A stretch of DNA of 64,000 nucleotides from Escherichia phage Mangalyan. A program made the translations under genes and the position numbers. Below the pieces are notes generated by a model that did not search any database, was not told where the DNA came from, and worked only from the letters and a program-made list of their open reading frames with translations. The stretch lies in sequence record OR449013; one strand, given 5' to 3'. Positions within the stretch are counted from its first letter, which is position 1; each line of letters begins with the position of its first letter. This document shows positions 5,117-64,000 of this stretch, in pieces.

Positions 5117-5830
5117 ATGCTGAATACTAAACTGATCGACAACCTGGAAAAACTGTCTCAGCCTGAAAACTACCTTTGGTCTGCCAACTGGGTGGAAAAC
5201 TGGAACCGTGTGGCAGCTAAAGTGAAAAAATCATACACACCATTCGAATTACAGCTTAGCTTCATTGAGGAAGAGTTCAATGAGGTTTTGGAAGAGCTGG
5301 AGAAAGGTGATGGTGGAGATCACCTGCTAAAAGAGGCCTGCGATCTTCACGTTGTCACAAGTTATGCCGCTTATCTTGTTAATGATAATCACGAAAAGTG
5401 GTCAAACCTGTTTGATAATCCACGAGGTCTTAAGTTCAAGATCGGTGAGTTCTATGATACACTGATCGCTGCGAAAAACACATCCAAGCAAAGAGCGTCA
5501 GCTTACCGCTTAGCGGAGTTGTCAACAGCTTTGCTGTTCCAGCTTCGCGGCGATGTGTGTGGGATGATGCGGAAGGTTCTCAAATCTAATGACAGCAAGT
5601 TTGCACGGATCAACCATCTACGATATTCTCACGGTGCCAGTGCAGATATGTCTACTGAATTGCTCATAGAGTTAGAGATTGAAGATCTTGAGCGTCGTTT
5701 TGGTGGTCGCTACGAAGGTTTCGTTGCTAAAGAGGAGTTCTACAACGGTAATAAAGTTATTATATTCCTTGACAGTAAAGGTAAGATTATGAAGCCTTCG
5801 AGCTTCAAGGATGTAACAGAGTATATTTAA
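5117..5830 (+). CDS. MazG-like nucleotide pyrophosphohydrolase (tentative)
   Basis: acidic cluster EEEFNEVLEELEKGDGGDHLLKEACDLHVV resembles the all-alpha NTP-PPase E-x2-E ... E-x2-D metal-binding pattern; 237 aa. Confidence 0.45.
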   Translation: MLNTKLIDNLEKLSQPENYLWSANWVENWNRVAAKVKKSYTPFELQLSFIEEEFNEVLEELEKGDGGDHLLKEACDLHVVTSYAAYLVNDNHEKWSNLFDNPRGLKFKIGEFYDTLIAAKNTSKQRASAYRLAELSTALLFQLRGDVCGMMRKVLKSNDSKFARINHLRYSHGASADMSTELLIELEIEDLERRFGGRYEGFVAKEEFYNGNKVIIFLDSKGKIMKPSSFKDVTEYI

Positions 5831-5836
5831 CAACAT

Positions 5837-5860
5837 AGCCGGGATTACCCGGCTTTACTT
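5837..5860 (+). terminator. rho-independent terminator
   Basis: stem AGCCGGG / CCCGGCT with 4-nt loop followed by T-rich tract. Confidence 0.6.
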
Positions 5861-5892
5861 ATTATGGAAAGTATGCAGTGAGGTAGTTAGTT

Positions 5893-6201
5893 ATGTACAA
5901 GCATTCCAGAGATCTTGAAAAAGATGCTGTGTTTGGCGACCAGATGAAGGAGCTGATCAAACTTATAGGTAGAATGGAAGATAAGTTTGACACTAAAATC
6001 TACATCGATAGCAAGATCTTCAACCACAAAATATGGACAAATGTGTGTGTTGGGCTACATGGTGATAAAGATATTGTAAATTTGGTTGTAATAAAGTTCA
6101 TAGTGTGGCAGAATAGGACTATACGTTATTCCGATCCACACTTACTTGTTTATCCTATAAAAGACCTACTACAGAAGGAGGACTGCAATGCCGTTATTTA
6201 A
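5893..6201 (+). CDS. hypothetical protein (102 aa)
   Basis: ORF after terminator with GAGG-containing leader. Confidence 0.5.
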   Translation: MYKHSRDLEKDAVFGDQMKELIKLIGRMEDKFDTKIYIDSKIFNHKIWTNVCVGLHGDKDIVNLVVIKFIVWQNRTIRYSDPHLLVYPIKDLLQKEDCNAVI

Positions 6202-6457
6202 TCTTGCTAAACCTGTAGAAGCACACCAGTTTGATGGAAGCTCTTCATCAGTATCTGATCTGCAACGGTGGATTGATACAGGTGTGTTTACATCGTCACC
6301 TGTTCGGACCAGAGATATTCGTCGCATGTGTGAGCTTGTTGAGCCGTTTGGTAACCTTGTCCTGTACCAGGGAGATTGGCTAGTTGACTTTATGGGAGAC
6401 TGGTTGGTAATGAGTAAAGAAGAGATGTTTAAAATTTTTAAGGAAGAGGCCGAGTAA
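6188..6457 (+). CDS. hypothetical protein (89 aa)
   Basis: ORF with GAAGGAGG upstream; overlaps neighbours by a few nt. Confidence 0.5.
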   Translation: MPLFNLAKPVEAHQFDGSSSSVSDLQRWIDTGVFTSSPVRTRDIRRMCELVEPFGNLVLYQGDWLVDFMGDWLVMSKEEMFKIFKEEAE

Positions 6458-7740
6458 TGCATCAAATCAAAACAACACTGTACGCACTGAACAAAGATGG
6501 CAGCTACCAACAGTGGAAAGTATTCACTGATGGCGAAAAGGTTATCGTAGAGTTTGGCAAGCTTGACGGTAAATTGCAGTACAAAGAGACGGTATGCACA
6601 CCTAAGAACGTAGGTCGTGCCAATGAGACTACAGCTGAGCAACAGGCCGAGCTTGAGGCTATCAGCAAGTGGGAAAAACAAGTCCGTCTGGGGTATGTTG
6701 AAAACATGGAAGATTGCGAGCAGGGTGTTGATCTTTTACCCATGCTGGTGCATGACTACCTGAAGCGTGGCAAGGCACTTAAACTACCTTGCTGGATCTT
6801 GCGTAAGTTAGATGGCCTTCGTCTGCTTGTTGTTTTCCAAAATGGTGAGCCTAAATTTATTTCCCGTGGTAATAAGTCCTACCCTATTCAAGGAAAGCTT
6901 TTAGAGCAACTTCGTTCTTTCCATTCTACCACTGGGATTAAACAACTTGATGGGGAACTATACATTCATGGTCTTCCTTTGCAGAAAATAGTGTCTCTTG
7001 CTAAACGGTGGCGCACACAGGAAGAGATTCAGGCCGAGATCGATAAAGACTATGAGGCAGATAAAAAACGCCGTCATGCCGCAATTAAGTCCGGCTTATC
7101 AACATACAAAAACTTCAACAAGGTAGATATTCCTGTCGATGTTGAGCCTGTTCGTGATGATTTGCGTTACGGTGGGTACTGTAGCTACGATCTGGAGTAT
7201 CACATTTTTGATATTCCTAGCGACAAGGTGTGGTGGGATCCCGAAACAGAGTCTGGACGCTGCAAGGATCTTATGGATGCAGAGGATACCGTTACCACTC
7301 TGATGCTTGACCATATCAAGGTTGTTGACGCAGAGCTTGCGTACACAGTTGATCATTGCGAAGAATCTGTTGGTATATTCATGTCCGAAGGATATGAAGG
7401 TACCATTATGCGTAACTTCTGTGGTAAATATGAGTACGGTCAGAGAACATCTGAAGCATTGAAATGGAAAAAGTTCAACGACGCAGAGGTGAAAGTTATT
7501 GACGTTGAGAAAGATAAGAATGATGAAGGTGTTCTTATCTGTGTTGACAAGGAAGGTATTGTTGTTAAAATGAAGATGAAAGGTACGCACGAGGAGCGTA
7601 GCTATGACAGAATGCAGGAAATGATCGGCAAGTTTGTCACCTTCAAATATCAAGCAAGGACAGAAGACAACAACTACCAATTCCCTGTCGGTATCTGCGT
7701 CCGAAATGTTAACCCAGACACTTGGGAGGTGCTGGAATAA
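6457..7740 (+). CDS. ATP-dependent polynucleotide ligase (probably DNA ligase)
   Basis: motif I KxDG (LRKLDGLR), EGTIMR (motif IV-like), LKWKKF (motif V K-x-K); 427 aa. Confidence 0.7.
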   Translation: MHQIKTTLYALNKDGSYQQWKVFTDGEKVIVEFGKLDGKLQYKETVCTPKNVGRANETTAEQQAELEAISKWEKQVRLGYVENMEDCEQGVDLLPMLVHDYLKRGKALKLPCWILRKLDGLRLLVVFQNGEPKFISRGNKSYPIQGKLLEQLRSFHSTTGIKQLDGELYIHGLPLQKIVSLAKRWRTQEEIQAEIDKDYEADKKRRHAAIKSGLSTYKNFNKVDIPVDVEPVRDDLRYGGYCSYDLEYHIFDIPSDKVWWDPETESGRCKDLMDAEDTVTTLMLDHIKVVDAELAYTVDHCEESVGIFMSEGYEGTIMRNFCGKYEYGQRTSEALKWKKFNDAEVKVIDVEKDKNDEGVLICVDKEGIVVKMKMKGTHEERSYDRMQEMIGKFVTFKYQARTEDNNYQFPVGICVRNVNPDTWEVLE

Positions 7741-7882
7741 TTTAGGTATGTTTAGTAGCCAATTGAATAAGTGTTTTCAATTTGCACCTACATATGCCCT
7801 GATGTATGAACTGTGCAACCTAGCCACACCACACAGTGGTGCTGATCGGGGCTCGTTATGAGTGAACTGGAGAGTATGAAAA

Positions 7883-8353
7883 ATGAAACTTGATAAAAAT
7901 GTTCAACGAAAGGCTTTCTTGGATATGATCGCATATTCGGAAGGCACAGATAATGGTAGACAACCTACCAAGGATCGGGGATACGATGTCATAGTCGGAG
8001 GCAAGCTGTTCAGCGATTACAGCAAGCATCCCGGTGTTTACGTTAAGCTAAATGCTAAACTTACCTCCTCCGCTGCTGGGCGTTACCAGGTTTTGGAGAA
8101 GTTTGCTAAACACTACATGGAACAGTTAGGATTGCCAGATTTTGGCCCTGCCAGTCAGGACAAGATTGCGTTGCAACTGATCCGTGAGTGCAAGGCTCTC
8201 GCCGACATTGACGAAGGGCGTATCCACGAGGCTATCCATAAATGCCGTTCCCGCTGGGCTTCGTTGCCTGGTGCTGGATATGGTCAGCATGAACAGAAGA
8301 TTGAGAAGTTGATCGAGGTGTTTAAAAAGGCAGGCGGTGTTGTCCTTGATTGA
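7883..8353 (+). CDS. endolysin, lambda R-type lytic transglycosylase
   Basis: near-colinear with lambda R as recalled: QRKAFLDM, SEGTDNGRQ, GYDVIVGG, AGRYQ, WASLPGAGYGQ; catalytic Glu in SEGT. Confidence 0.9.
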   Translation: MKLDKNVQRKAFLDMIAYSEGTDNGRQPTKDRGYDVIVGGKLFSDYSKHPGVYVKLNAKLTSSAAGRYQVLEKFAKHYMEQLGLPDFGPASQDKIALQLIRECKALADIDEGRIHEAIHKCRSRWASLPGAGYGQHEQKIEKLIEVFKKAGGVVLD

Positions 8354-8416
8354 TCATTGACATAACCACACGGACGTGGTATTGTTACCTCATAAAATGT
8401 TTAGGAGGGTTTAACC

Positions 8417-8623
8417 ATGAAAGACTTTCTGTTGGCAATTTTGTTCATGGCAGCATGTCTGGCCTGTGGTGTCGTGTTTGCAGGTGAAACAGCGTATCTT
8501 GTCGATGTATATCGGGACAATGGTAAACGTATTTGCCTTTATGAGACAAGTCAAGGTGAGCTCTACGAGCTTGTGAAACAAGGCGAGGCTGGATCTTGTC
8601 CTCGCACCCATTTCTTTGAGTGA
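8417..8623 (+). CDS. small membrane-anchored or secreted protein (68 aa), possible lysis accessory
   Basis: N-terminal hydrophobic stretch FLLAILFMAACLACGVVFAG; directly downstream of endolysin. Confidence 0.45.
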   Translation: MKDFLLAILFMAACLACGVVFAGETAYLVDVYRDNGKRICLYETSQGELYELVKQGEAGSCPRTHFFE

Positions 8624-8632
8624 GGAGAATAC

Positions 8633-9097
8633 GTGGAAGACGGACGTTTAATGAAGTCTGAACGCAGGCTTATTGTGCAACTGATCCCAGAAACAGCTTG
8701 GTATAATAACCTCCGAAACGCTGTGAAGAAGAGTGAGTGGGATAAGATCCGCAAGAAGTGCTATAGAGAAGCCAACTACACCTGTGAGGTGTGCGGCGGT
8801 AAAGGCAGCAAACACCCAGTGGAGTGTCATGAACTTTACACTTTCGAAGAGGGAGTGATCCGGCTTGTCGGACTGATAGCGTTGTGCCCAGATTGTCACA
8901 CATCGGTGCATCCTGGGTTAGCAAATATCCGTGGAAAGTATGCTCAGGCAGTTAGTCAGTTAGCTAAGGTGAATAAGATCACCAAGGGTATGGCAGAGGC
9001 CTATTACCGAGACTGCTTTGCAGAGTGGCGTGAGCTTAGTAAAGTTCCAGAATGGAAGACTGACTTTTCGTGGATAGAGGGTTACCTTGATGGCTAA
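8633..9097 (+). CDS. HNH-type nuclease
   Basis: CEVCGG ... HPVECHE ... CPDCH zinc-finger / HNH pattern; GTG start 5 nt after GAGGAG. Confidence 0.6.
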   Translation: MEDGRLMKSERRLIVQLIPETAWYNNLRNAVKKSEWDKIRKKCYREANYTCEVCGGKGSKHPVECHELYTFEEGVIRLVGLIALCPDCHTSVHPGLANIRGKYAQAVSQLAKVNKITKGMAEAYYRDCFAEWRELSKVPEWKTDFSWIEGYLDG

Positions 9098-9380
9098 GAA
9101 ACCTGTAAAAGAGAAATTCGATAAGACAGCTTTTGTATTCGATACACCTCTGGACGATATCATCAGAGGTATGCAAGCCTTGTATCGGAAGGCTGAATCT
9201 GAGCAGTTGTCTGAATCAGAACTTTACTGGCTTGGTTGGTGGGAGTTAAACCTGCCTAAAGCTGAAAGTTCTTGTCTGAGAACTGTTAAAACGTGCGCCC
9301 AAGAAAACGCTGCACTTGGAATCTACCACAAAAGGAAAAGATCAACAAAAAGCTCTCCAAGAAAGACTAAAAAGTCTTGA
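9087..9380 (+). CDS. hypothetical protein (97 aa), basic C-terminus
   Basis: ORF overlapping upstream stop. Confidence 0.45.
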   Translation: MMAKKPVKEKFDKTAFVFDTPLDDIIRGMQALYRKAESEQLSESELYWLGWWELNLPKAESSCLRTVKTCAQENAALGIYHKRKRSTKSSPRKTKKS

Positions 9381-9406
9381 CAAAAGTGTTATTAATCTGA
9401 TATTAT
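9377..9406 (+). promoter_or_regulatory. sigma70-like promoter
   Basis: TTGACA 9377-9382, 17-18 bp spacer, ATATTA/TATTAT at 9400-9406. Confidence 0.6.
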
Positions 9407-9439
9407 CGGTCAGATATCTATAAACTAGGAGAACTAGAT

Positions 9440-9748
9440 ATGCTTAAAATTTTTATTATTGAAGATAAAGATATTGTCCAGTTGTATGCAAACGAGAATC
9501 ATAAAGGTATGATTCTGAAGAAGGCAAGCAACCTTCATGAAAACACAATTCAACCTGGCGATGTAATTAAGATCTGTGGTTATATGATACCAGACTCCTT
9601 GATGAAAATAACCCACCACTGGGGGTCTAATCCGTTCCTTTTTGAAAAGTATTGGGATGTTGAGTCACTTATTGCAGAGAGTGATGATGCATTCCATTAC
9701 AGCATCCAACCATCTTGCAGAATAACTAACAGGAGGGTCTTTGAGTAG
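9440..9748 (+). CDS. hypothetical protein (102 aa)
   Basis: ATG 9 nt after AGGAGAA. Confidence 0.5.
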   Translation: MLKIFIIEDKDIVQLYANENHKGMILKKASNLHENTIQPGDVIKICGYMIPDSLMKITHHWGSNPFLFEKYWDVESLIAESDDAFHYSIQPSCRITNRRVFE

Positions 9749-10880
9749 AGAATATCCACTTATTGAGTCCATAGATTGTCTGGCTGATCTTCTTGAACCT
9801 GACGCTATAGTTTATTATGACTTCGATCAGGTTGCATATCAAGCTGCAGCAAGTTGTGAAAAAAGGACAATTGAGGTAACACACAAAGCCTCCGGACGTA
9901 AGAAGATGTTTAAAACACGAACAGAGTTCTGGGGGCGGCAGAAGAACACCGTTGGTGGTTGGTTAAAAGCTGAGAATACCAACCGTGAAGCTGCATGTAA
10001 AAAGGCTGGCAAGGAGTTTATTCCGTGGACACGAGAAGATTTCGATGTCTTGGATATCCAAACCCCAGATCCTGTAGAGAACTGCTTGCACACAATTAAG
10101 TGTAAAGCTAATGCAGTCCTTAATTATCTCGGTATTCCGGAAGATCGGTGCGTTGGGGTGCTGGGAGGCACAGGTAACTTCAGACTAGATCTCCCAATGC
10201 CGGAAAGATATAAAGCCAACCGTAACAATACTCTTCGACCACTGCTGCTTGGAGATGCAAGGCAGTATCTCCAAAAGCAGTATAATGCTCAAGTGATCAA
10301 CGGTATCGAGGCTGACGACTGGTTAGCTATCCAGCAATTTGAAGGTTGGAACCACTACCAAAAAACAGGTAAGTTCAACAAGTTTATTATCTCTATTGAT
10401 AAGGACCAAAGAACACTACCGGGGCTTGTGTTCGATCCCATGCGAAATGATAAGGGAGATTTTGTAAGGGAAACCCCTATGCTGATCGATAACGGTATGG
10501 GTAACATCTTCATGAAGCCTAATGGAGAGGTTGGTGGTTACGGAATGCTGTTCTTCGGATACCAAATGCTGTGTGGTGACTCTGCTGACAACATCAAGCC
10601 GTATCAAGGACTTATCGGTAAGGGTAAGTTCGGGGATGCCTCAGCATTCTACCTACTGTCTCAGTGCAGCACTCCAAAGGAGATGTGGGCGGCTATTATT
10701 GATCAGTACAAGAAGTGGTTCCCGAAAGGTGTTGTTAAGTATACTGACTTCAATGGTATTGATCGTAGAATTTCCGTAGGTCAGTGGATGAGTATAATTT
10801 TTGACTGTTTGTATATGAAGCGAACATTCAATGATCGAACAAAACTTGTTAACGTTCTTAGAAATGTTGGAGCAATTTGA
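9741..10880 (+). CDS. 5'-3' exonuclease, T7 gp6-like (FEN/PIN fold)
   Basis: blocks ERYKANRNN, FIISIDKDQRTLP, GIEADDWLA, CGDSADNIKPYQGLIG parallel T7 gene 6 exonuclease and T5 FEN motifs as recalled. Confidence 0.75.
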   Translation: MSREYPLIESIDCLADLLEPDAIVYYDFDQVAYQAAASCEKRTIEVTHKASGRKKMFKTRTEFWGRQKNTVGGWLKAENTNREAACKKAGKEFIPWTREDFDVLDIQTPDPVENCLHTIKCKANAVLNYLGIPEDRCVGVLGGTGNFRLDLPMPERYKANRNNTLRPLLLGDARQYLQKQYNAQVINGIEADDWLAIQQFEGWNHYQKTGKFNKFIISIDKDQRTLPGLVFDPMRNDKGDFVRETPMLIDNGMGNIFMKPNGEVGGYGMLFFGYQMLCGDSADNIKPYQGLIGKGKFGDASAFYLLSQCSTPKEMWAAIIDQYKKWFPKGVVKYTDFNGIDRRISVGQWMSIIFDCLYMKRTFNDRTKLVNVLRNVGAI

Positions 10881-11212
10881 TGACTAAAAATTCTGTAGAT
10901 AATGCAATTATGGAAGCTGTTTTTGAGGATGATCATACAACAGGGACCATTAAAACAAAAAATACATTTATTGTTGCCACAGGTATGTGGCGGTTGTATG
11001 AAGATGACACTATTTCATACATCCTGTACACAGATGATTACGCAGATGACCGTGTATGGTCTGCTGTTTTAAAAGAGGATTGTGAGTTGATTGAGGGCGA
11101 GCGGTTATGCATGTTCACCAGTGTGGAAACAGATGTTAAGCTTTGCTCTCTCGTCTTGTTCAAAGATAAGGCTTATGCTCCTGATGAAGGAGAGGAGGAT
11201 GAGGAAGCATGA
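10877..11212 (+). CDS. hypothetical protein (111 aa), acidic C-terminus
   Basis: ORF overlapping upstream stop by 4 nt. Confidence 0.5.
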   Translation: MMTKNSVDNAIMEAVFEDDHTTGTIKTKNTFIVATGMWRLYEDDTISYILYTDDYADDRVWSAVLKEDCELIEGERLCMFTSVETDVKLCSLVLFKDKAYAPDEGEEDEEA

Positions 11213-11838
11213 GAGAGCGTCTATTATCCATAGACCAGTCGTTGACACACACAGCTTGCGTTGTATGGGACGATGGAAAGCCTGTTCATAAGGTTGTGTT
11301 ACGAACTCAAAGCTCATCTGCAAAAGAGAAGAAACCAGGGACGGTTTCTTTTGCAACAGCTGCTGAGCGTATTGACTGGATCTGCAAACAGGTCAGATAT
11401 TATATCCACACGCATCACGTTGACACCGTGGTTATGGAAGGGCTTTCCTTTGGATCACGCGGGGATGCCACACGTGAACTGGCTGGGTTGTTTTACGGTC
11501 TTGAAATTATGCTTTGGGATGCCTTAGCTGATTGTGAAAATGACGGCCTGTTTAAGGTCCACACAGTGACACCAACAACTGCCAAAAAGTTTGCTCGTAG
11601 TCATCTTCCTGAAGAACTTGCTTTTGAGGAGAAGAAAAAGCTTGACAAAAAGACAGGTAAAGAGCATACTGTGAAGAAACCTGTTACAATGGATAAAAAG
11701 TTGATGGTTAAGGCCTGCGAAGTATCTGAACCTGGGTTCCTAGACGGGATCAATTTGGTACAAGGTAAGGCCGATCTCGCAGATGCTTATTGGATAGGCA
11801 GGGCTCATCTGGAGGGATTATCGCAAAGCGTAAAATAA
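11209..11838 (+). CDS. RuvC-like Holliday junction resolvase (tentative)
   Basis: N-terminal LLSIDQSL (catalytic Asp position), VVMEGLSFG, ADAYWIG acidic residues in RuvC-like order. Confidence 0.55.
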   Translation: MRERLLSIDQSLTHTACVVWDDGKPVHKVVLRTQSSSAKEKKPGTVSFATAAERIDWICKQVRYYIHTHHVDTVVMEGLSFGSRGDATRELAGLFYGLEIMLWDALADCENDGLFKVHTVTPTTAKKFARSHLPEELAFEEKKKLDKKTGKEHTVKKPVTMDKKLMVKACEVSEPGFLDGINLVQGKADLADAYWIGRAHLEGLSQSVK

Positions 11839-12395
11839 GAAAGAAAGCTGTCAAAGCCCCAGTTCATAACGGGTGGTTAAAAGATTCTAAGGACATAGCC
11901 AACTTTCGAAAAGAATTGTCAGAGGAGCAGGATGGTCTTGATCCGATCTTGTGCGAGCCACTTCGTAAGCCTTGTTTAGATCATGATCATCTGACTGGTC
12001 GTTGCAGGGGTGTTTTGTCTCAATGCACTAATACCTTTGAGGGGTATGTGCTTAAATACTGGATGAAATACTGTAACGAGTATACAGATTGCAGTTTATC
12101 AGAGGCGTTGCGCCGGATGGCTGACTATTTGGAGAAAGACTACAGCGACTTCCCGCTCCACAAAAACTACAGAGATGATATGACAAAGTTCTTGAGGAGA
12201 TGCTCTAAAGCTACGATTATTGCACGAGCAGAATCAGATCTCAATCTTGTCATTAATCCAGAGTGCACCAAGCATGAGGCTATTGAGCTCTACATGCAGG
12301 AGTTTATAAAGAAAACTGAGGAGAGAGATTTCTATGGGGATGAAAAAGGTATTCAATCCTTGCGACTCAGTCCTGATCAGGATGAAATACCGTAA
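11790..12395 (+). CDS. endonuclease VII-like (T4 gp49 family) resolvase
   Basis: LCEPL ... CLDHDHLTGRCRGVLSQCTN matches the DHDH / Cys-cluster core of recombination endonuclease VII; start uncertain (overlaps upstream gene by 49 nt). Confidence 0.65.
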   Translation: MDRQGSSGGIIAKRKIRKKAVKAPVHNGWLKDSKDIANFRKELSEEQDGLDPILCEPLRKPCLDHDHLTGRCRGVLSQCTNTFEGYVLKYWMKYCNEYTDCSLSEALRRMADYLEKDYSDFPLHKNYRDDMTKFLRRCSKATIIARAESDLNLVINPECTKHEAIELYMQEFIKKTEERDFYGDEKGIQSLRLSPDQDEIP

Positions 12396-12555
12396 CTGGA
12401 AAGGTGTTGTTGCAGATCGCTGCGTTACTGAGCCTAATTTATGGTTTGGCTCTACAGAGTATCATAAAGAAGAGCAGTGGTTGATGCGTGCCTTCGATGT
12501 AGACAAGGGCGAATATCGTGACTTCGCTTTAAAAGACATTCTTCAGTTTTACTAA
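12334..12555 (+). CDS. hypothetical protein (73 aa)
   Basis: ORF with GAGGAGAGAG leader; overlaps 3' end of endo VII-like ORF. Confidence 0.4.
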   Translation: MGMKKVFNPCDSVLIRMKYRNWKGVVADRCVTEPNLWFGSTEYHKEEQWLMRAFDVDKGEYRDFALKDILQFY

Positions 12556-12567
12556 GGAATCTTAACG

Positions 12568-13551
12568 ATGATGACAAAGTTAACTCTTGAGCAAATTTTA
12601 ACACTAAAGCAACAAGGATACACTAATAGACAAATTGCTCGTGAATTTTTAGGCCGTGAGTCACGTGAGAGCTGGATCCGACTACAGCTTAAACGTGCAC
12701 AAGAGAATATGTCAGAGATTGTAGGAGAAGCAACGGAGCGCTTCCTTGAAGAGCACAAAGGTGCTAAAGTTTGGGTGTATGATACAGAGACATCCCCAAC
12801 AAACGGCTGGTTCTTTGGGCACTATAAGACCAACATTCAAACCTGTGGTATTGAAGTTATGCCCTATATGCTAACTTTCGCAGGTAAGTGGTTAGACAGC
12901 TCTAGTGTGGTTGACTGCGCTCTTCCAGATTACAAAATGTGGGATGAGGATATTCACAATGATCTCGAATTGATTCAGGATTTGTGGTATTATCTGGATA
13001 AATGCGATGTCGCAGTAGCCCACAATTCAGGTTTTGACTGCGGGTGGGCCAACCAACGATTTGCATTTCACGGGTTGCCTCCAACAAGCCCCTACAAAGA
13101 GGTTGACACCCTTAAAATGATCAAGAAGGCATTCCGTTTGAATGCAAACACTTTAGAGTATGCATGCAAATACTTCCAACTGGCCCGACAGAAACTGATT
13201 GACCACACATTTGAAATGTGGATCAAGTGTGTCCATGGCGATCTTGAGGCATTTAAACAGATGCGGGAGTATAATGTTGGTGATATCCTGTCTCTGGAAG
13301 GCTTGTATTTGCTGGCTCGCCCGTTTGCTAAGCAGCACCCAAACATGTCATTGTACTACCAGGACGAGGAGCCAAAGGTTCGTTGCCCACGCTGTGGTGG
13401 AGAACACCTTCACGAGGAAGAAGCTTTGGCGTATACTCAGCTGAGTGCATTTAAAACATACCGCTGCGAAGGTTGTGGATCTGTTGTTCGTGATCGTAAC
13501 AACATCCGTACCAGAGAAGAGATGAAAAACACCCTGATTCAGATAATCTAA
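12568..13551 (+). CDS. DEDD-type 3'-5' exonuclease with N-terminal HTH and C-terminal zinc ribbon
   Basis: Exo I VWVYDTETSP, Exo II HNSGFDCGW, Exo III YNVGDILSLEGLY; N-terminal LKQQGYTNRQIAREF; C-terminal CPRCGG ... CEGCG. Confidence 0.65.
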   Translation: MMTKLTLEQILTLKQQGYTNRQIAREFLGRESRESWIRLQLKRAQENMSEIVGEATERFLEEHKGAKVWVYDTETSPTNGWFFGHYKTNIQTCGIEVMPYMLTFAGKWLDSSSVVDCALPDYKMWDEDIHNDLELIQDLWYYLDKCDVAVAHNSGFDCGWANQRFAFHGLPPTSPYKEVDTLKMIKKAFRLNANTLEYACKYFQLARQKLIDHTFEMWIKCVHGDLEAFKQMREYNVGDILSLEGLYLLARPFAKQHPNMSLYYQDEEPKVRCPRCGGEHLHEEEALAYTQLSAFKTYRCEGCGSVVRDRNNIRTREEMKNTLIQII

Positions 13552-13557
13552 CAAGTA

Positions 13558-13587
13558 GAGGGAGGCTTGCGCCTCCCTTTTCCTTTT
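13558..13587 (+). terminator. rho-independent terminator
   Basis: stem GGGAGGC / GCCTCCC, loop TTGC, then TTTTCCTTTT. Confidence 0.55.
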
Positions 13588-13596
13588 GGAGGCACT

Positions 13597-14415
13597 TTGA
13601 GCAAGAAAGAGTCTAACGACAAGTATTACACAAACCCAGGGTATGCAGAATATCTTGTTGGTAAAGTAAAAGATAAGTATGGGAATTGTGCATACGTTGA
13701 GCCTTCTGCTGGAAGAGGTTCTTTTTCAAAACTATTTTCAGAGATACTGTCGTACGATTTAGTACCAGATCCTGAATTTGAAGGACCAACACCGTGCATT
13801 CAGGCAAACTTCTTGGAGATGCACCCCAAGGCAGATGTCTTCATAGGTAACCCACCATTTGGCAAGAATTCATCTTTAGCTTGCAAATTCTTTAACCATT
13901 GTGCATCATTGCTAGAGCTTGGCGGGGCTATAGCCTTCATCTTGCCACGGACATTTGAAAAAATATTTTTTTCAAACAAACTGGACATGTCTATGCACCT
14001 TGTCTACAGCGAAAGGTGCCCTAAGAACTCGTTTTTACTTAATGGCAAACCTTATGACGTGCCATGTGTTTTCCAAATTTGGGAGAAAAAGGCGTGCAAT
14101 AGGGATCCTGTAGAGATTGGAGAGAATAAGTTATTTTCTTTTAGCACACCGGATGACTACGACTTCTGTGTAAGACGTGTTGGGTATAACGCTGGAAAAG
14201 TATTGGGTGATGATGATCCAAAATCTGAAGAATCTACATATTTCATAAAATCTTTAGTTGACGGTGTTGACAGAGTGTTTGCTGAATGCTATTCTTCTTT
14301 TCAAGAAGAAGCAGGTAAGACTGCTGGAATGAAGAGTATAGGCAAGAAAGAACTACAATACATTTTGGAGACCCGGTATGATCAAAAGCATAGACTTGAC
14401 CAAAGAACTTGCTGA
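13597..14415 (+). CDS. N6-adenine DNA methyltransferase, gamma class (TaqI/Eco57I-like catalytic domain)
   Basis: KYYTNPGYAEYLV, motif I VEPSAGRGSF, motif IV FIGNPPFG; ORF-track start 13567 is a TTG inside the terminator hairpin, so TTG 13597 (4 nt after GGAGG) is preferred but uncertain. Confidence 0.75.
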   Translation: MSKKESNDKYYTNPGYAEYLVGKVKDKYGNCAYVEPSAGRGSFSKLFSEILSYDLVPDPEFEGPTPCIQANFLEMHPKADVFIGNPPFGKNSSLACKFFNHCASLLELGGAIAFILPRTFEKIFFSNKLDMSMHLVYSERCPKNSFLLNGKPYDVPCVFQIWEKKACNRDPVEIGENKLFSFSTPDDYDFCVRRVGYNAGKVLGDDDPKSEESTYFIKSLVDGVDRVFAECYSSFQEEAGKTAGMKSIGKKELQYILETRYDQKHRLDQRTC

Positions 14416-14836
14416 TGCAAAAGCTTTTGGTGAGACAGCGGTACAAAGAGGCCAGGCTATGGGACTGGCACTACCTTTCGTCTTAAAAGAGCACTTTACA
14501 GATTTTCAACTTATCAAGGGTGATAAGGGAATTCTTATCCTGGAGCATAAGTTGAGTAAGAAACGCTATAAAGTTGTTTTTAATTCTAAAGCTCCAACAA
14601 AACTGGGATTCAGAACTTACAATCTTAACCCATCCTACACTAAGGGTGTAGGAAGAGTAGAACAACAGCATTTCAGTGCTAGAGCTTCTTTAGCCCCCTT
14701 GATGCTAAATTTTTCAGGGGTGGCTTTAGGATACCTTGACAAGAAAAGAGTTCTTCATGTCCGTTTCACAGACTTTGTAACGCTTTTAGCTAACAATGAG
14801 GTAGATGAAAAGGGACGTGTAAAAACAAACTTCTAA
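14378..14836 (+). CDS. hypothetical protein (152 aa)
   Basis: ORF overlapping 3' end of methyltransferase gene. Confidence 0.45.
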   Translation: MIKSIDLTKELADAKAFGETAVQRGQAMGLALPFVLKEHFTDFQLIKGDKGILILEHKLSKKRYKVVFNSKAPTKLGFRTYNLNPSYTKGVGRVEQQHFSARASLAPLMLNFSGVALGYLDKKRVLHVRFTDFVTLLANNEVDEKGRVKTNF

Positions 14837-14863
14837 TAACGCATAGTATGATTGGAGACCGCA

Positions 14864-15055
14864 ATGACACTAAAGTTAACAGTTCCAGACAGCTTTTCAG
14901 AAAACTTTATCCCAGAAATGATGGATAAGATGCGATCATTGCTTGATCAGATTGAAGAGGCTGTTTGGGAAGACGATGCTGTAGTGGCTAACGAGCTGGT
15001 AGATAAGTGTAAAAGTATTATTGATGCAGTTGAAGAATACCACGGAGGTTTTTGA
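14864..15055 (+). CDS. hypothetical protein (63 aa), acidic
   Basis: ATG 14864 after GGAGACC; ORF-track TTG 14852 less likely. Confidence 0.45.
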   Translation: MTLKLTVPDSFSENFIPEMMDKMRSLLDQIEEAVWEDDAVVANELVDKCKSIIDAVEEYHGGF

Positions 15056-15669
15056 TGGATATTATTGTTCTTAACGCCCCACCTAGTAGTGGTAAGGATC
15101 ACATTGCAGATCTCTTGTTGGAAGCTATTCCTAACTCACACCATCGTGAGGTTAAGGAGATGCTCTTCAGCGTGGCAATTAAGGCAGCTGGTGTAACTCC
15201 TCAACTCTGGAATGCACTTTATGACCGCCACTACAAAGAAGAGCCTTGCCCTTTCTTAATGATAGACGGTAAGCATGTTTCTCCGCGAGAGTGGATGATC
15301 CATTGTAGTGAAAATCTGATTAAACCTATCTTTGGTGAAGATGCTTTCGGTAAGGCCGCAGTCACATCCTTGAAGAAAGATTTCCCTAAAGGTAAAGGGG
15401 TTGTTGTTTACTCCGATGGTGGATTCAAAGAGGAGCTGGCATGCCTTAGTGAGTACGCATACAGCACAGGTGGAGATCTGTTGTTGTTCCGTATTCACCG
15501 TGTCGGATATGACTGGGGAAATGATTCCAGAACCTATCTAAGTCTGGAAAAGAACGGAATAAAAGGGATTGAGTTCGATGTTGTAAACCCTGAAGGTGCA
15601 CCTTGGGAGTGTGCATCGGAGATTGTGTGCAAGTATATTGATGCTAAAGAGGCCCAAGAAGAATGTTAA
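15052..15669 (+). CDS. P-loop kinase, deoxynucleoside monophosphate kinase-like (tentative)
   Basis: N-terminal Walker A-like LNAPPSSGKD as in T4 gp1-type dNMP kinases; sits among nucleotide-metabolism genes. Confidence 0.45.
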   Translation: MMDIIVLNAPPSSGKDHIADLLLEAIPNSHHREVKEMLFSVAIKAAGVTPQLWNALYDRHYKEEPCPFLMIDGKHVSPREWMIHCSENLIKPIFGEDAFGKAAVTSLKKDFPKGKGVVVYSDGGFKEELACLSEYAYSTGGDLLLFRIHRVGYDWGNDSRTYLSLEKNGIKGIEFDVVNPEGAPWECASEIVCKYIDAKEAQEEC

Positions 15670-16256
15670 TCGGAATTGATGTAGATTTGACACTGGTAGA
15701 TTCAGGAACAGCATGGTGGGAGTGGTTGGAGCGTTTGTATGGTCCAGCCAGTAAGACAGTCGCTAAACCTTCTAATGGACTGATGTATTACGATCTGTCA
15801 AAGTATTGGCCTGATCGCCCCAAAGAAAACATCATAGGGCCTTTTGATTTCTGGAGTGACCCATTCCTCTACGACTTTCTTAAGCCTGAAGAGGGGGCTA
15901 TTGAGGTTATGAAAGATTTGGTGGCTCGTGGTCACAAGCTTGCATTTATCTCGGTATGCAAGAAAGGTCACCTTGCATCTAAATCAAGGTTCTTAAAGCG
16001 TTGGACCAGTGATTTTATGGATCTGGACGATCACACCCAGGGTCACGGCTTCTACGCCACACATTTCAAAGGAAATGTGGCTGTAGATGTTATAATTGAC
16101 GACAGGCATGAATACCTTAACCAATTCGCTTCACGACCTGAAGTTATTAAAATCCTAAAAGATACGCCTTATGAGCAATTCGAGGAGTTAAAGGTCAGTG
16201 TTGACTATACCGCCAATAGCTGGTATAAAATAGGAAAGTTTTTAGAAGGTATTTGA
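15663..16256 (+). CDS. HAD-superfamily hydrolase, probable nucleotidase
   Basis: motif I IGIDVDLTLVDS (DxDxT), late VIIDDR acidic motif. Confidence 0.6.
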   Translation: MLIGIDVDLTLVDSGTAWWEWLERLYGPASKTVAKPSNGLMYYDLSKYWPDRPKENIIGPFDFWSDPFLYDFLKPEEGAIEVMKDLVARGHKLAFISVCKKGHLASKSRFLKRWTSDFMDLDDHTQGHGFYATHFKGNVAVDVIIDDRHEYLNQFASRPEVIKILKDTPYEQFEELKVSVDYTANSWYKIGKFLEGI

Positions 16257-16257
16257 A

Positions 16258-16458
16258 ATGGGCAGATGTTCTAAAGGTGGCGATCCTGTAGTCAGATACG
16301 GTGACTGGCTGGAGGTATATGATCTGGGAGGTAAGCTAGTGTATGCCTCCAGGATCACCCAAGACATGTGCTCTGATATGTTTAACAGATACCTTGCATT
16401 TAAGGCCAACATAAACCCAGACGAAATTTCCAAAATTAAAACAAGGAGAGCTAAATAA
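16258..16458 (+). CDS. hypothetical protein (66 aa)
   Basis: ORF tightly packed between neighbours. Confidence 0.45.
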   Translation: MGRCSKGGDPVVRYGDWLEVYDLGGKLVYASRITQDMCSDMFNRYLAFKANINPDEISKIKTRRAK

Positions 16459-17441
16459 TGCTAAAACTGTGCACTGCAAAGATCATTGCTGACAGCATTT
16501 CCGAGAAAGGTAAGCGTATCACCACTTTTGAGCTAGAGTATCCTCGAATTATTCACTCAGAGCTTATGACGCACCGAGTGTTCAGCCGAAACGCCATGTC
16601 TTCCCGTGCAGTTCCTGTCGGCAAGATGCTGCAGCAGATTGTGGAGAATCCGGCAATGCCAGTTCGCTTCGGTGTAAATAAGCGAGGTATGGAAGATGGT
16701 GGAGAACACGATCAAAAGATCCGTGTAGAGTACACTGACATGGAGCTAACCCCTGAAGAGTTTTGGAAAGAAGCTGCAAAAAACGCCGCTTGGCATGCAG
16801 AGAAGTTCGCCCTTGCTGGTTACCATAAACAAGTATGTAACCGCTTAGTGGAGCCGTTTCAGCGCATGAAAACAGTTGTAACAAGCACAGAGTGGAATAA
16901 TTTTTTCCATCTCCGTTGCTGGCACGATGCGGATCCTACGATTCAGATGTTGGCTAATTGTATGTGGGAAGCTCTTGTGAATAGCACTCCTGAAATCCTT
17001 AAACCATGGCAATGGCACACTCCATATGTAGAGCACGTTTATTTGGACGGAGAGTTTAACTACGCTGTACGTGACACAGAAGGAAAGCTCTGCATTCTCG
17101 ATACTAAAGAAGCTCTGTCTATCAGTGCTAGTTGCTGTGCACAAGTATCTTATCGAAATATTGACAGCACGTTTGAAAAGGCAGACAGTGTGGCTAAAAA
17201 ATTGATTGGTGGGGATCGTATCCATGCAAGCCCTTACGAGCACCAGGCAACACCTATGGATCACGATAACGCAATGGAACGTTTAAACTACTACCTGTCT
17301 TCATGTGAAATCACACAAGACAGCTGTGTTTGGCAGGAAGGTGTAACCCATCAAGACCGTGATGGTAAATTCTGGTCTGCCAACTTTTGTGGGTGGGTTC
17401 AGCACAGACAACTGCTTAATAACCACTTCGTGAAAGGTTAA
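16458..17441 (+). CDS. thyX: flavin-dependent thymidylate synthase ThyX
   Basis: ThyX signature R-H-R-x7-S in ELMTHRVFSRNAMSSRAVP; 327 aa. Confidence 0.85.
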   Translation: MLKLCTAKIIADSISEKGKRITTFELEYPRIIHSELMTHRVFSRNAMSSRAVPVGKMLQQIVENPAMPVRFGVNKRGMEDGGEHDQKIRVEYTDMELTPEEFWKEAAKNAAWHAEKFALAGYHKQVCNRLVEPFQRMKTVVTSTEWNNFFHLRCWHDADPTIQMLANCMWEALVNSTPEILKPWQWHTPYVEHVYLDGEFNYAVRDTEGKLCILDTKEALSISASCCAQVSYRNIDSTFEKADSVAKKLIGGDRIHASPYEHQATPMDHDNAMERLNYYLSSCEITQDSCVWQEGVTHQDRDGKFWSANFCGWVQHRQLLNNHFVKG

Positions 17442-17470
17442 TCCTATCACAGCGATAGGTAACTTTTGTG

Positions 17471-17499
17471 TTGACTAATAGTATCAGATAATCTATAAT
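17471..17499 (+). promoter_or_regulatory. strong sigma70-like promoter
   Basis: TTGACT 17471-17476, 17-bp spacer, TATAAT 17494-17499. Confidence 0.7.
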
Positions 17500-17527
17500 A
17501 ATGGCTCACTTTGTTGGTGAGCCAGAA

Positions 17528-62162: not shown

Positions 62163-62408
62163 TTAGCCAATCACTTCGAAAGTTCCCCAATTCCCGTCCA
62201 GCAGGCAGGTGATCGGATCCCCATCGTCGTCAAAGATTTCAAAGTTTTCAGCATCCAGGATGTGGCCCTCGAACACAATACTTTCGTCGCCACCACCAGA
62301 AATAACAGCGTATTCCTTACCTTGAGTCAAGTTTTGACACCCTTTGCCACCAAAACCTACTTCAACACAACGTACTTTCTGTCCTGCGCGAGCAACTACT
62401 TCAGTCAT
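62163..62408 (-). CDS. hypothetical protein (81 aa)
   Basis: ATG preceded by TCAGGAGACC. Confidence 0.5.
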   Translation of the reverse strand: MTEVVARAGQKVRCVEVGFGGKGCQNLTQGKEYAVISGGGDESIVFEGHILDAENFEIFDDDGDPITCLLDGNWGTFEVIG

Positions 62409-62425
62409 CTTAAGGTCTCCTGATA

Positions 62426-62746
62426 TTAATCGTCAAGTTCAAAATAGATTTTAACAGCTTCATCAAAGATTGGAATCCCGATGTTGTTAATAAGCTGCCA
62501 AACTACCATATCTTTACCTGGGTCGGGGAGAATGTCAACCTTTCTCCATGCGCTGTATATCCAGTTCGGACCACCTTCTGCACTAACTGGCAGATTTTCA
62601 CCAGCCTCCTGCAGATACTTATACAGCAAAAGATATTCTGGATACTCTAGAACACTGTCCTCTGTAGTATATAGCAGTTCACGGTATACTTTTAAGAACC
62701 CTGCGGGGGTGATGTTTTCAGTCTTCATTTGCTGCTTCTCCTGCAT
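62426..62746 (-). CDS. hypothetical protein (106 aa)
   Basis: ATG preceded by AGGAGAAGCAGC. Confidence 0.5.
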   Translation of the reverse strand: MQEKQQMKTENITPAGFLKVYRELLYTTEDSVLEYPEYLLLYKYLQEAGENLPVSAEGGPNWIYSAWRKVDILPDPGKDMVVWQLINNIGIPIFDEAVKIYFELDD

Positions 62747-63110
62747 TCATCAGATCTGCCATAGCGTCACCCACGAAGAGAACAACCACATCGTTGACAG
62801 CGTCAGCATCATCTTTGTTGACGTTGCTGAATTTAGGACACACAGCAATGATCATATAGACACCGTTACCAACTTGAACTGTCCGTGTGGTGCACATCAT
62901 GGCGGTATTTGTGCCTTCTTTGAAGGCGAAGCCTTGAAGACGCTCCTCTAAAGTGTTACCGGTAGATTTCAGAAGCGCCAGCTCGTCCAAGGCATAGATG
63001 ATATCTCCGGAAGTTAGTGTTGCCTTGCCATCAGACACCATAATCACTCCATCAGCACCATCAAACTTAGAGGCTTCAAAGATATCGATATCCCAAATAT
63101 TTTTCATCAC
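62718..63110 (-). CDS. hypothetical protein (130 aa)
   Basis: ATG preceded by GAGGAAGCG. Confidence 0.5.
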   Translation of the reverse strand: MMKNIWDIDIFEASKFDGADGVIMVSDGKATLTSGDIIYALDELALLKSTGNTLEERLQGFAFKEGTNTAMMCTTRTVQVGNGVYMIIAVCPKFSNVNKDDADAVNDVVVLFVGDAMADLMNAGEAANED

Positions 63111-63439
63111 GCTTCCTCATCATCTAAGTAATCATCAAGAGAGGTGAAGATTTCACCGAAGTATTCTAAGATTTCTAGCTCACGTGTGGTGCAGCAAACA
63201 TAATCGCCTTGGTCGTCCTTAATAGTGGCCTCTTTACCCAGAATATCTACTTCAAGTTCATCGTTCAACAGGACGGCCCCTGTGTAAACTTTGTCAGCTG
63301 TGCAGTCCCGAAAAGCAGAGTCCTTCTCCAGATAGTCTGGCTTAACCTTGGCTTTAATTCGTTGATATTGTTTGGTCATTGCTGTGGTCCCCTTTCGTTT
63401 TGATAGGGCCATTATAGTAGGCCCTATGACTGTTGTCAA
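63107..63439 (-). CDS. small protein, tandem paralogue family C (110 aa)
   Basis: KPDYLEKDSAFRDCT ... DDQGDYVCCT parallels KPECVENDRAFKDCT ... DDEGDSVWCT of 63443-63697. Confidence 0.55.
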   Translation of the reverse strand: MTTVIGPTIMALSKRKGTTAMTKQYQRIKAKVKPDYLEKDSAFRDCTADKVYTGAVLLNDELEVDILGKEATIKDDQGDYVCCTTRELEILEYFGEIFTSLDDYLDDEEA

Positions 63440-63442
63440 GCA

Positions 63443-63697
63443 TTAATGTTCAGGTTTTACAAAAACTACTTCATTAACAGTGCACCAGACAGAGTCTCCT
63501 TCATCATCTTTAAAGGTAAGGCACTGTGCTGAGTTTTCCAACTCATCAAGCTCTTCCTGTGATAGAGGAGCTCCTTCTTCCAGAAGGGCTTTTACCAAAG
63601 GGTTCTCACAAAACTCTGCTTCATAAATTGCACCGATTGTGCAATCTTTAAAAGCTCGGTCATTTTCAACGCATTCTGGCTTCAGAGTAATTTTCAT
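63443..63697 (-). CDS. small protein, tandem paralogue family C (84 aa)
   Basis: see 63107-63439; ATG preceded by AAGGAGACCGC. Confidence 0.55.
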   Translation of the reverse strand: MKITLKPECVENDRAFKDCTIGAIYEAEFCENPLVKALLEEGAPLSQEELDELENSAQCLTFKDDEGDSVWCTVNEVVFVKPEH

Positions 63698-63797
63698 CTT
63701 AGCGGTCTCCTTAAGTGTTAAACAATCAACGCTCTGTTTGTGTGAAGCATCTTATATCTAATCTTACTTCCTGTCAACGACTATTTTCGATCATCCA

Positions 63798-64000
63798 CTA
63801 AGGATCAAGATAAGTTTGTTGACTTTTTGCCCACTGACAAACTTCATTGTACATCTGAACCTCGTTGTCCGTCAATTCACGAATAGGTTCATCTATACCC
63901 TCATTTTTATGGTAATCCCATTCTGCGTCTATCTCCCACAGCCATGACTTGTTGTCACCACGCTTACGCACACAGAAATCACCAGGGCGGCCTGCCAGTG
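63798..64000 (-). CDS. hypothetical protein, 3' portion only (gene start lies beyond window edge)
   Basis: frame open from window edge to TAA at about 63798; not in ORF track because its start is outside the window. Confidence 0.35.
   Translation of the reverse strand, partial: LAGRPGDFCVRKRGDNKSWLWEIDAEWDYHKNEGIDEPIRELTDNEVQMYNEVCQWAKSQQTYLDP

Follow-up and report, generated by a model that had tools for sequence, protein, structure and literature searches.

Four predicted nucleases, two of them with junction-resolvase folds, form a conserved gene block in the rV5-like Escherichia phage Mangalyan

We analyzed a 64,000-nucleotide stretch of Escherichia phage Mangalyan (sequence record OR449013; hereafter the window) and a group of four nuclease genes on its + strand. 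A first-pass annotation, made from the letters alone, had placed four nucleases within 4 kb, and their open reading frames (ORFs) lie exactly at 9741-13551. The ORFs encode a predicted T7 gp6-type 5'-3' exonuclease of the flap endonuclease (FEN) superfamily, a RuvC-like resolvase, an endonuclease VII (EndoVII) homologue and a 3'-5' exonuclease of the DEDD type. The four family assignments were borne out by PHROG profiles (phrog_107, phrog_159, phrog_423 and phrog_403), by Pfam Endonuclease_7 and by structure matches. We consider, with a probability of roughly 0.75, that the genes form part of a conserved operon for DNA processing in a lytic coliphage of the rV5-like group, whose replication machinery is of the T7/phiKMV type.

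The window comes from a Vequintavirus, that is, a lytic coliphage of the rV5-like group of E. coli myophages. When the 3.8-kb nuclease stretch was compared with the DNA of phage records, it was 99.9% identical to Escherichia phage PDX and 98.8-99.9% identical across PDX, AlexBoehm (99.0%) and FFH2. At least 90% identity was found in 120 phage records, nearly all of them Vequintavirus. The sequence is already in GenBank and the nuclease block is a standard annotated rV5-like gene block. The finding is therefore ordinary: the block had been annotated before, and the family of its exonuclease is very common among phages. Its importance hardly extends past annotation, where it corrects two widespread database labels: 'hypothetical' or 'RNaseH' for the 209-amino-acid (aa) protein and 'DNA polymerase exonuclease subunit / DnaQ-like' for the 327-aa protein. 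It also offers modest leads, namely the paired resolvase classes (division of branch-processing tasks in lytic phages), an EndoVII clade without zinc ligands and a very large exonuclease family.

To measure selection we used a related IMG/VR contig as the reference (L015, 3300010279_000001; about 89% DNA identity). The ratio of nonsynonymous to synonymous substitution rates (dN/dS) was 0.016 for the FEN gene, 0.027 for the RuvC-like gene, 0.086 for the EndoVII gene and 0.018 for the DEDD exonuclease gene. Because these ratios are low, the four nuclease ORFs are genuine genes under strong purifying selection and not chance ORFs. The ratios of the small ORFs were 0.065 (111 aa) and 0.052 (73 aa), and that of the downstream methyltransferase gene was 0.05-0.09.

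Salmonella phage vB_SEnST11_KE22 (PP856721; Seunavirus) names all four nucleases, in the order exonuclease, hypothetical, RuvC-like Holliday junction resolvase, endonuclease VII, hypothetical, DNA polymerase exonuclease subunit; other rV5-like records name three of the four. The order in the window is that of KE22, and nothing substantive distinguishes the window from the annotated blocks of KE22, PDX, AlexBoehm and FFH2. The same order of 5' exonuclease, small ORF, RuvC-like protein, EndoVII, small ORF and DEDD exonuclease was kept in Seunavirus, Mydovirus and SSBI34. Further, a Vibrio phage with a RuvC protein only 30% identical kept the gene order with interspersed genes. We then scanned 59 IMG/VR loci that carry RuvC-like relatives, using profiles of all four families. 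The four genes stood in FEN-RuvC-EndoVII-DEDD order in 21 loci, the RuvC relative stood alone in 25, and FEN with RuvC was found in eight. FEN adjoined RuvC in most loci holding both.

The phiKMV-like podophages (Autographiviridae, with another virion type) carry the 5' exonuclease, EndoVII and DEDD exonuclease as neighbours (MPK6 gp24-26). Likewise, gp21, gp22 and gp24 of JG068 are a 5' exonuclease, EndoVII and a DNA exonuclease in the same order (PMC3765740). The three proteins of this module belong to the same three PHROG families as those of the window and stand in the same order, and the MPK6 exonuclease matched phrog_403 over residues 21-348 of 348, nearly its full length. The phiKMV-like module differs from the window in that it contains no RuvC-like gene and in that its EndoVII keeps CxxC and H/C ligands. 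From these comparisons of sequence, the rV5-like block seems to unite two widespread modules, FEN-RuvC and FEN-EndoVII-DEDD.

The pair of RuvC and EndoVII is a conserved, selected feature of the whole rV5-like group. Two different resolvase folds in one phage had been described in the first-pass annotation as redundant on their face. A comparative study found RuvC and EndoVII to be nearly complementary in jumbo phages (PMC7824862), so that their stable pairing here is somewhat atypical, and to this extent the remark was apt. However, the conserved gene order, the intact catalytic residues and the low dN/dS of both genes argue that the two resolvases are not redundant.

The 379-aa protein matched phrog_107 (E = 1.6e-71), the family into which T7 gp6 itself falls (E = 5.2e-79). 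The direct BLASTP match to T7 gp6 was weak (E = 0.002; pairwise identity 19-28%) and spanned the YKANR, E-DD and DKD motifs. Across 26 aligned sequences, of which T7 gp6 and MPK6 gp24 were two, the carboxylates D27, D29, E190, D192, D193, D220, D222, D280 and D283 were invariant. The family profile matched the solved structures 9l56 (E = 6e-7; deposited as '5'-3' exonuclease family protein'), T5 FEN (D15; 1exn, E = 6e-5), T4 RNase H (E = 8e-4) and the Taq 5' nuclease (E = 4e-3), and also ExoIX. Pfam 5_3_exonuc_N (PF02739) was detected on distant homologues (P0250, P0251, P0255, P0257 and P0260). Because phrog_107 and the invariant carboxylates are shared with T7 gp6, the profile reaches FEN structures and homologues carry PF02739, the 379-aa protein is, as judged from its relatives, a FEN-superfamily enzyme of the gp6 type. 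It is longer than T7 gp6 (379 versus 300 aa), with about 90 extra residues inserted behind the first acidic motif.

The 209-aa protein matched phrog_159 (E = 4.5e-39). We collected 33 homologues, of which the two shortest Pfam-annotated ones (P0030 and P0032; 31% identity) carry the RuvC domain PF02075. In the homologue alignment E77, D189 and D192 were invariant and D9 was nearly so. The catalytic tetrads are D7-E66-D138-D141 in E. coli RuvC and D8-E71-D145-D149 in the RuvC of phage bIL67 (PMC3864405). When E. coli RuvC was compared using hhalign, E77 was aligned with E66, in a low-probability alignment of the E66 region alone; D9 and E77 aligned with the corresponding residues of D. radiodurans RuvC. 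D189 and D192 would correspond to D138 and D141 of E. coli RuvC, given that they open the last helix in an AlphaFold2 (AF2) model and have D-x2-D spacing (PMC3864405).

The AF2 model of this protein had a predicted local distance difference test (pLDDT) score of 92.8. In a Foldseek search of the PDB, ranks 1-11 were all bacterial RuvC (E = 7e-8 to 1.4e-5; template modelling score 0.72-0.79 on the target), followed by TEFM, phage bIL67 RuvC and Ydc2. The question had been raised whether profile searches would place this ORF in a non-nuclease family, and both the structure and the profile searches returned RuvC resolvases. The protein has the fold and the D-E-D-D catalytic set in common with bacterial and bIL67 RuvC, but the identity is 11-17% and the length is 209 aa versus about 160 aa. 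The greater length is due to a lysine-rich beta-hairpin insertion at about residues 135-160, which is specific to the clade of this protein and is absent from the shortest homologues. No RuvA or RuvB partner was annotated in the AlexBoehm genome (99.0% identical over the nuclease region).

The 201-aa ORF scored 31.6 bits against Pfam Endonuclease_7 (PF02945; cut-off, 23.6 bits) and matched phrog_423, the family of T4-type gp49 (E = 6.3e-37). Its residues 61-166 aligned with residues 37-146 of T4 endonuclease VII (1e7d; E = 3.6e-4). D64, H65, H67, N81 and E84 were invariant across rV5-like, Vibrio-phage, phiKMV-like and T4-like sequences; from the alignment, we take these to be the catalytic residues D40, H41, H43, N62 and E65 of the T4 enzyme. 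In the C-terminal region L107, Y113, L114 and H124 were also invariant. Thus the protein has in common with T4 endonuclease VII (gp49) the Pfam domain, the D-H-H-N-E set and similarity through the C-terminal region. Unlike the T4 enzyme, it lacks the Cys4 ligands and has a basic N-terminal extension and a C-terminal tail of about 25 residues each.

The zinc-ligand stretch reads CPIC...CNLCN in the T4 type and CPLC...HRSCN in the phiKMV-like MPK6 (CxxC plus H/C, a CCHC set). The window protein reads DPIL(C)...SQCTN (residues 51-81), and the proteins of related genera read DPILG...SQCVN or CAILG...GSTLN. No alternative four-ligand set was kept across the rV5-like EndoVII clade in an alignment that included L010, L011, L012, L014 and the IMG/VR loci. 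A similar cysteine-poor EndoVII was found in an Asteriusvirus jumbo phage. The alignments place the rV5-like EndoVII on a divergent branch of the Pfam family, which may be zinc-free. Because the Cys4 site is lacking, its substrate range could differ from that of T4 endonuclease VII.

The real start position of the EndoVII gene is uncertain. TTG is the only standard start codon of the ORF and gives a 49-nt overlap with the RuvC-like gene (11790-11838) in the -1 frame. No obvious ribosome-binding site precedes this TTG; GGAGGG is present at 11811-11816 within the overlap, with no standard start at the usual distance. In related genera, the two genes were annotated separately, with the EndoVII start past the RuvC stop codon. 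A RuvC-EndoVII fusion by programmed frameshifting was considered and set aside, as inspection by eye of 11790-11838 revealed no X-XXY-YYZ slippery site and related genera have the two genes apart.

The 327-aa exonuclease matched phrog_403 ('DNA polymerase exonuclease subunit') from end to end (E = 5.4e-110). The first-pass annotation had described an N-terminal helix-turn-helix (HTH) and a C-terminal zinc ribbon on this protein, and both were recovered. The HTH is encoded at about 12568-12753, the core at about 12763-13332 and the zinc ribbon at about 13375-13503. The AF2 model (pLDDT 93.9) showed helices at residues 7-15, 20-28 and 31-62, the exonuclease core and a three-stranded ribbon at residues 281-312. 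Among 64 sequences D72, E74, D157, Y235, D239 and C273 were invariant, and C276, C300 and C303 were nearly so. The N-termini of relatives matched various HTH families. In a direct Pfam search of the window protein, the RNase_T, zinc-ribbon and HTH matches were all sub-threshold.

The Exo I D-x-E, Exo II D and Exo III Y-x3-D motifs were all present. The H-x4-D motif of the DEDDh enzyme DnaQ was not found at Exo III, where Y235 and D239 are invariant; a histidine at about residue 213 occurs in close relatives only. Against the DnaQ models the protein scored 26.8 bits, far below the cut-off of 196. PF13482 was matched by 52 of the 64 relatives, and some matched PF10108 or the PolB exonuclease. 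The best Foldseek matches in the PDB were family-B exonuclease domains (Pol epsilon, archaeal PolB and herpes simplex virus polymerase; E about 1e-6). Based on these motifs and the predicted fold, the protein is a DEDDy, PolB-exonuclease-like enzyme of the PF13482 group and not a DEDDh enzyme like DnaQ. It has the DEDD motifs and fold in common with PF13482 and PF10108 enzymes, the YprB-like protein of phage LKA1 and E. coli DnaQ, whereas the HTH and zinc ribbon distinguish it from DnaQ and the polymerase domains.

This architecture had been called unusual, a description that the searches contradict. Homologues were found by tblastn in 1526 of 50,697 phage records, and 781 of them covered at least 80% of the query. 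An exhaustive search gave 3470 representative clusters at 50% identity (447 at E<=1e-30). Among the best 150 representatives, 136 had a C-terminal CxxC...CxxC and 108 had at least 45 residues ahead of the first catalytic motif. In BFVD, the LKA1 YprB-like protein was a full-length structural match (E = 9e-30), as were others. The carriers include phiKMV-like and PAK_P-like phages, ICP1, phAPEC8 and many mycobacteriophages. An exonuclease with a zinc ribbon, often with an N-terminal HTH, is thus one of the commoner phage protein families. Majorek et al. (2014; PMC3985635), who surveyed the RNase H-like superfamily, grouped PF13482 sequences of diverse phages (cluster F.23) with PolB-type 3'-5' exonucleases and described PF13482 as an uncharacterised family. 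For the HTH-DEDDy-zinc-ribbon family, the searchable literature yielded only genome descriptions and no biochemical study.

If the block is a DNA-processing operon, then the gp6-type FEN would remove RNA primers and resect 5' ends. T7 gp3 and gp6 turn host DNA into precursors. The FEN of the window may also degrade host DNA to mononucleotides for the downstream deoxynucleoside monophosphate (dNMP) kinase, thymidylate synthase and ribonucleotide reductase, and such recycling would fit with the nucleotide-salvage genes that lie downstream. A dimer of the RuvC-like protein may resolve true Holliday junctions that arise from recombination-dependent replication. With a broad specificity, the EndoVII homologue could debranch and nick the concatemer ahead of packaging, ridding it of forks, Y-junctions and heteroduplex loops. 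The HTH-DEDDy-zinc-ribbon enzyme would be a DNA-bound 3'-5' exonuclease that trims the 3' ends and flaps left by the endonucleases. We infer these functions by analogy with T7 gp6, T4 RNase H, RuvC and T4 endonuclease VII, because no biochemical or genetic work on these proteins in rV5-like phages was found in the searchable literature. As a rule, phage resolvases show promiscuity towards branched DNA (PMC3864405).

Besides this lack of published functional work, several observations weigh against the operon reading. Direct searches with the FEN and RuvC-like proteins of the window gave no Pfam, NCBIfam or PDB-sequence match, and their family membership therefore relies on PHROG profiles, intermediate homologues and predicted structure. 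The canonical Cys4 (CxxC...CxxC) zinc ligands are replaced in the rV5-like EndoVII. Promoter-like sites were no more numerous in the region than in shuffled sequence. Further, the Exo III tyrosine of the phage's own family-A polymerase (PolA) appears as arginine in a weak alignment with T7 gp5 (E = 1e-5), with the acidic residues kept.

The last of these points bears on whether the 327-aa protein instead proofreads for the phage DNA polymerase as a separate subunit. Its PHROG and RefSeq names imply such a subunit, its fold is closest to polymerase proofreading domains, and in phiKMV-like phages a few genes separate the exonuclease gene from the polymerase gene upstream. Because of the apparent arginine, some room is left for a trans-acting proofreader. 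However, the polymerase has its own D-x-E and HNxxxYD motifs and Exo III aspartate, aligned with T7 gp5 (including D5 and E7), and its gene lies about 50 kb from that of the exonuclease, which stands within the nuclease operon. The HTH and zinc ribbon suggest that the exonuclease binds DNA autonomously, and its chemistry is DEDDy rather than the DEDDh of DnaQ. We therefore consider a proofreading subunit improbable. In place of the label 'DNA polymerase exonuclease subunit / DnaQ-like', this analysis describes the protein as a DEDDy, PolB-exonuclease-like enzyme that has its own DNA-binding modules and is probably not the proofreader of the polymerase. Labels are also at issue for the 209-aa gene, which is 'hypothetical' in many rV5-like records and 'RNaseH' or 'ribonuclease H' in several Vequintavirus GenBank records. 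Since RuvC and RNase H have one superfold in common, the protein might remove RNA primers instead of resolving junctions. This is very hard to reconcile with the Foldseek results, in which the 11 best matches of the model were all RuvC and no RNase HI or HII was among the 50 best PDB matches. It is also countered by the Pfam RuvC matches of the homologues and by the RuvC-like D-E-D-D spacing with D-x2-D starting the last helix (PMC3864405), and the neighbouring FEN would already cover primer removal. By predicted structure and family profiles, the 209-aa protein is a RuvC-type resolvase and neither a 'hypothetical protein' nor an 'RNaseH'.

Two further alternatives concern the block as a whole. 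RuvC may be the sole genuine junction resolvase, with EndoVII having lost its structural zinc site and been repurposed. EndoVII would then nick or cleave branched DNA or that of the host, in the manner of T7 gp3, and so supply the 5' and 3' exonucleases on either side with substrate for nucleotide salvage. In the rV5-like EndoVII the T4 Cys4 ligands are not conserved while the catalytic residues are, FEN-EndoVII-DEDD stands as a module of its own in phiKMV-like phages, the block is directly followed by nucleotide-salvage genes, and RuvC and EndoVII are usually complementary (PMC7824862). Nevertheless, the similarity to T4 endonuclease VII extends beyond the catalytic core through the C-terminal region (T4 residues 37-146), and the EndoVII of the phiKMV-like MPK6 keeps the CCHC set. 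In contigs L035, L063 and L068 a RuvC relative is found alongside a canonical Cys4 EndoVII, so that the loss of the zinc site is not tied to the presence of RuvC. On balance we regard this explanation as tentative and rather doubtful. A bolder form, which we hold to be unlikely, is that the rV5-like EndoVII without Cys4 is no longer a resolvase and has passed this job to an inserted RuvC-like enzyme. Together with the gp6-type 5' exonuclease and the HTH-DEDDy-zinc-ribbon 3' exonuclease, EndoVII would in that case make up a three-enzyme machine for DNA demolition and end processing that is shared with phiKMV-like podophages. Finally, the clustering might have no functional meaning, the four genes merely lying in the replication and nucleotide-metabolism arm. 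Phage genomes generally group their DNA-metabolism genes, and this arm also contains ligase, RNA ligase, polynucleotide kinase, ribonucleotide reductase and thymidylate synthase genes. Yet the gene order was kept at 30-50% RuvC protein identity and across virus families, and the nuclease genes overlap or abut; meaningless clustering thus seems quite improbable.

Table 1. Genes and candidate transcription signals of the nuclease block (window coordinates)
Feature	Position	Strand	Basis and remarks
Sigma-70-like promoter candidate	9377..9406	+	TTGACA, 18 nt spacer, TATTAT, TG extension; 11/12 matches
102-aa ORF, leads the block	9440..9748	+	phrog_14449, E = 3e-72; 8-nt overlap with following gene
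Predicted T7 gp6-type 5'-3' exonuclease / flap endonuclease (FEN superfamily), 379 aa	9741..10880	+	phrog_107
Conserved 111-aa ORF between FEN and RuvC-like genes	10877..11212	+	phrog_7583, E = 4.8e-57
Predicted RuvC-like Holliday-junction resolvase, 209 aa	11209..11838	+	phrog_159; AF2 model and Foldseek
Endonuclease VII homologue (HNH/beta-beta-alpha-Me), 201 aa	11790..12395	+	Pfam Endonuclease_7, phrog_423
Conserved 73-aa ORF	12334..12555	+	phrog_3715, E = 2.6e-26
Predicted HTH + DEDDy 3'-5' exonuclease + Cys4 zinc ribbon, 327 aa	12568..13551	+	phrog_403, full length
Intrinsic-terminator-like hairpin	13557..13580	+	10 bp stem, 6 GC pairs, T-rich tail

The block comprises seven tightly packed or overlapping genes (9440-13551) flanked by promoter-like and terminator-like sites (Table 1). 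The promoter-like site lies in the gap ahead of the first gene and was the best such site of the neighbourhood. The hairpin begins 6 nt past the exonuclease stop codon and was the strongest terminator-like site within 5500-17500. Both were recognized by sequence pattern and are candidates only. The hairpin covers the TTG at 13567, which is the first codon of the 282-aa methyltransferase ORF; in annotated relatives the methyltransferase starts about 30 nt further downstream, and we deem this later start more plausible.

The 102-aa ORF was labelled 'transposase' in PHROG and RefSeq and 'hypothetical' in the AlexBoehm record; it seems small for a transposase and the label therefore looks like inherited annotation. 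In Seunavirus, Mydovirus and SSBI34, the position of the 111-aa ORF is occupied by genes of about 100-106 aa. The 73-aa ORF gave a match to Pfam WYL_2 (WYL/SH3-like) that was below the cut-off (E = 0.021), and some records annotate a later start for it at 12382. Across other genera, both small-ORF positions are filled by ORFs of 45-106 aa, which correspond to them in position.

According to annotated relatives, the genome is about 136 kb long and the nuclease stretch sits in its arm for replication and nucleotide metabolism, which also holds RNA ligase and polynucleotide kinase genes. Upstream lie genes for ligase, endolysin and an HNH endonuclease, and downstream lie those for methyltransferase, dNMP kinase (assigned using PHROG), thymidylate synthase and ribonucleotide reductase. 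The HNH endonuclease (8633-9097; phrog_5200, E = 4.5e-72) is a fifth nuclease gene, located about 650 bp upstream of the block and outside the putative transcription unit; other records label it a homing endonuclease. In AlexBoehm an intervening sequence bearing a homing endonuclease interrupts the family-A polymerase gene (L004, 17352-20971). By coordinate mapping from AlexBoehm, the C-terminal part of the polymerase is expected near 62200-64000 of the window on the - strand. A search with PADLOC models gave no sign of a defence or counter-defence system, the sole match being a generic DEDDh match for the exonuclease.

Identity to L015 was 84-92% over the nuclease block, 96-99.7% over the next 3 kb (13433-16432) and about 70% thereafter. 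The profile is mosaic and breaks close to the terminator-like hairpin. We considered whether the nuclease block is a horizontally swapped cassette and rejected this, as the downstream segment at 13.4-16.4 kb was unusually similar to L015 and the block itself was not unusually divergent.

The coliphage region was also matched by 20 'Campylobacter phage' records in GenBank (MG065635-MG065684; host, C. jejuni). Among the matches listed, 12 of these records were 98.5-99.6% identical to the nuclease stretch. Their C. jejuni host labels look doubtful and may reflect, for example, contamination or mislabelling.

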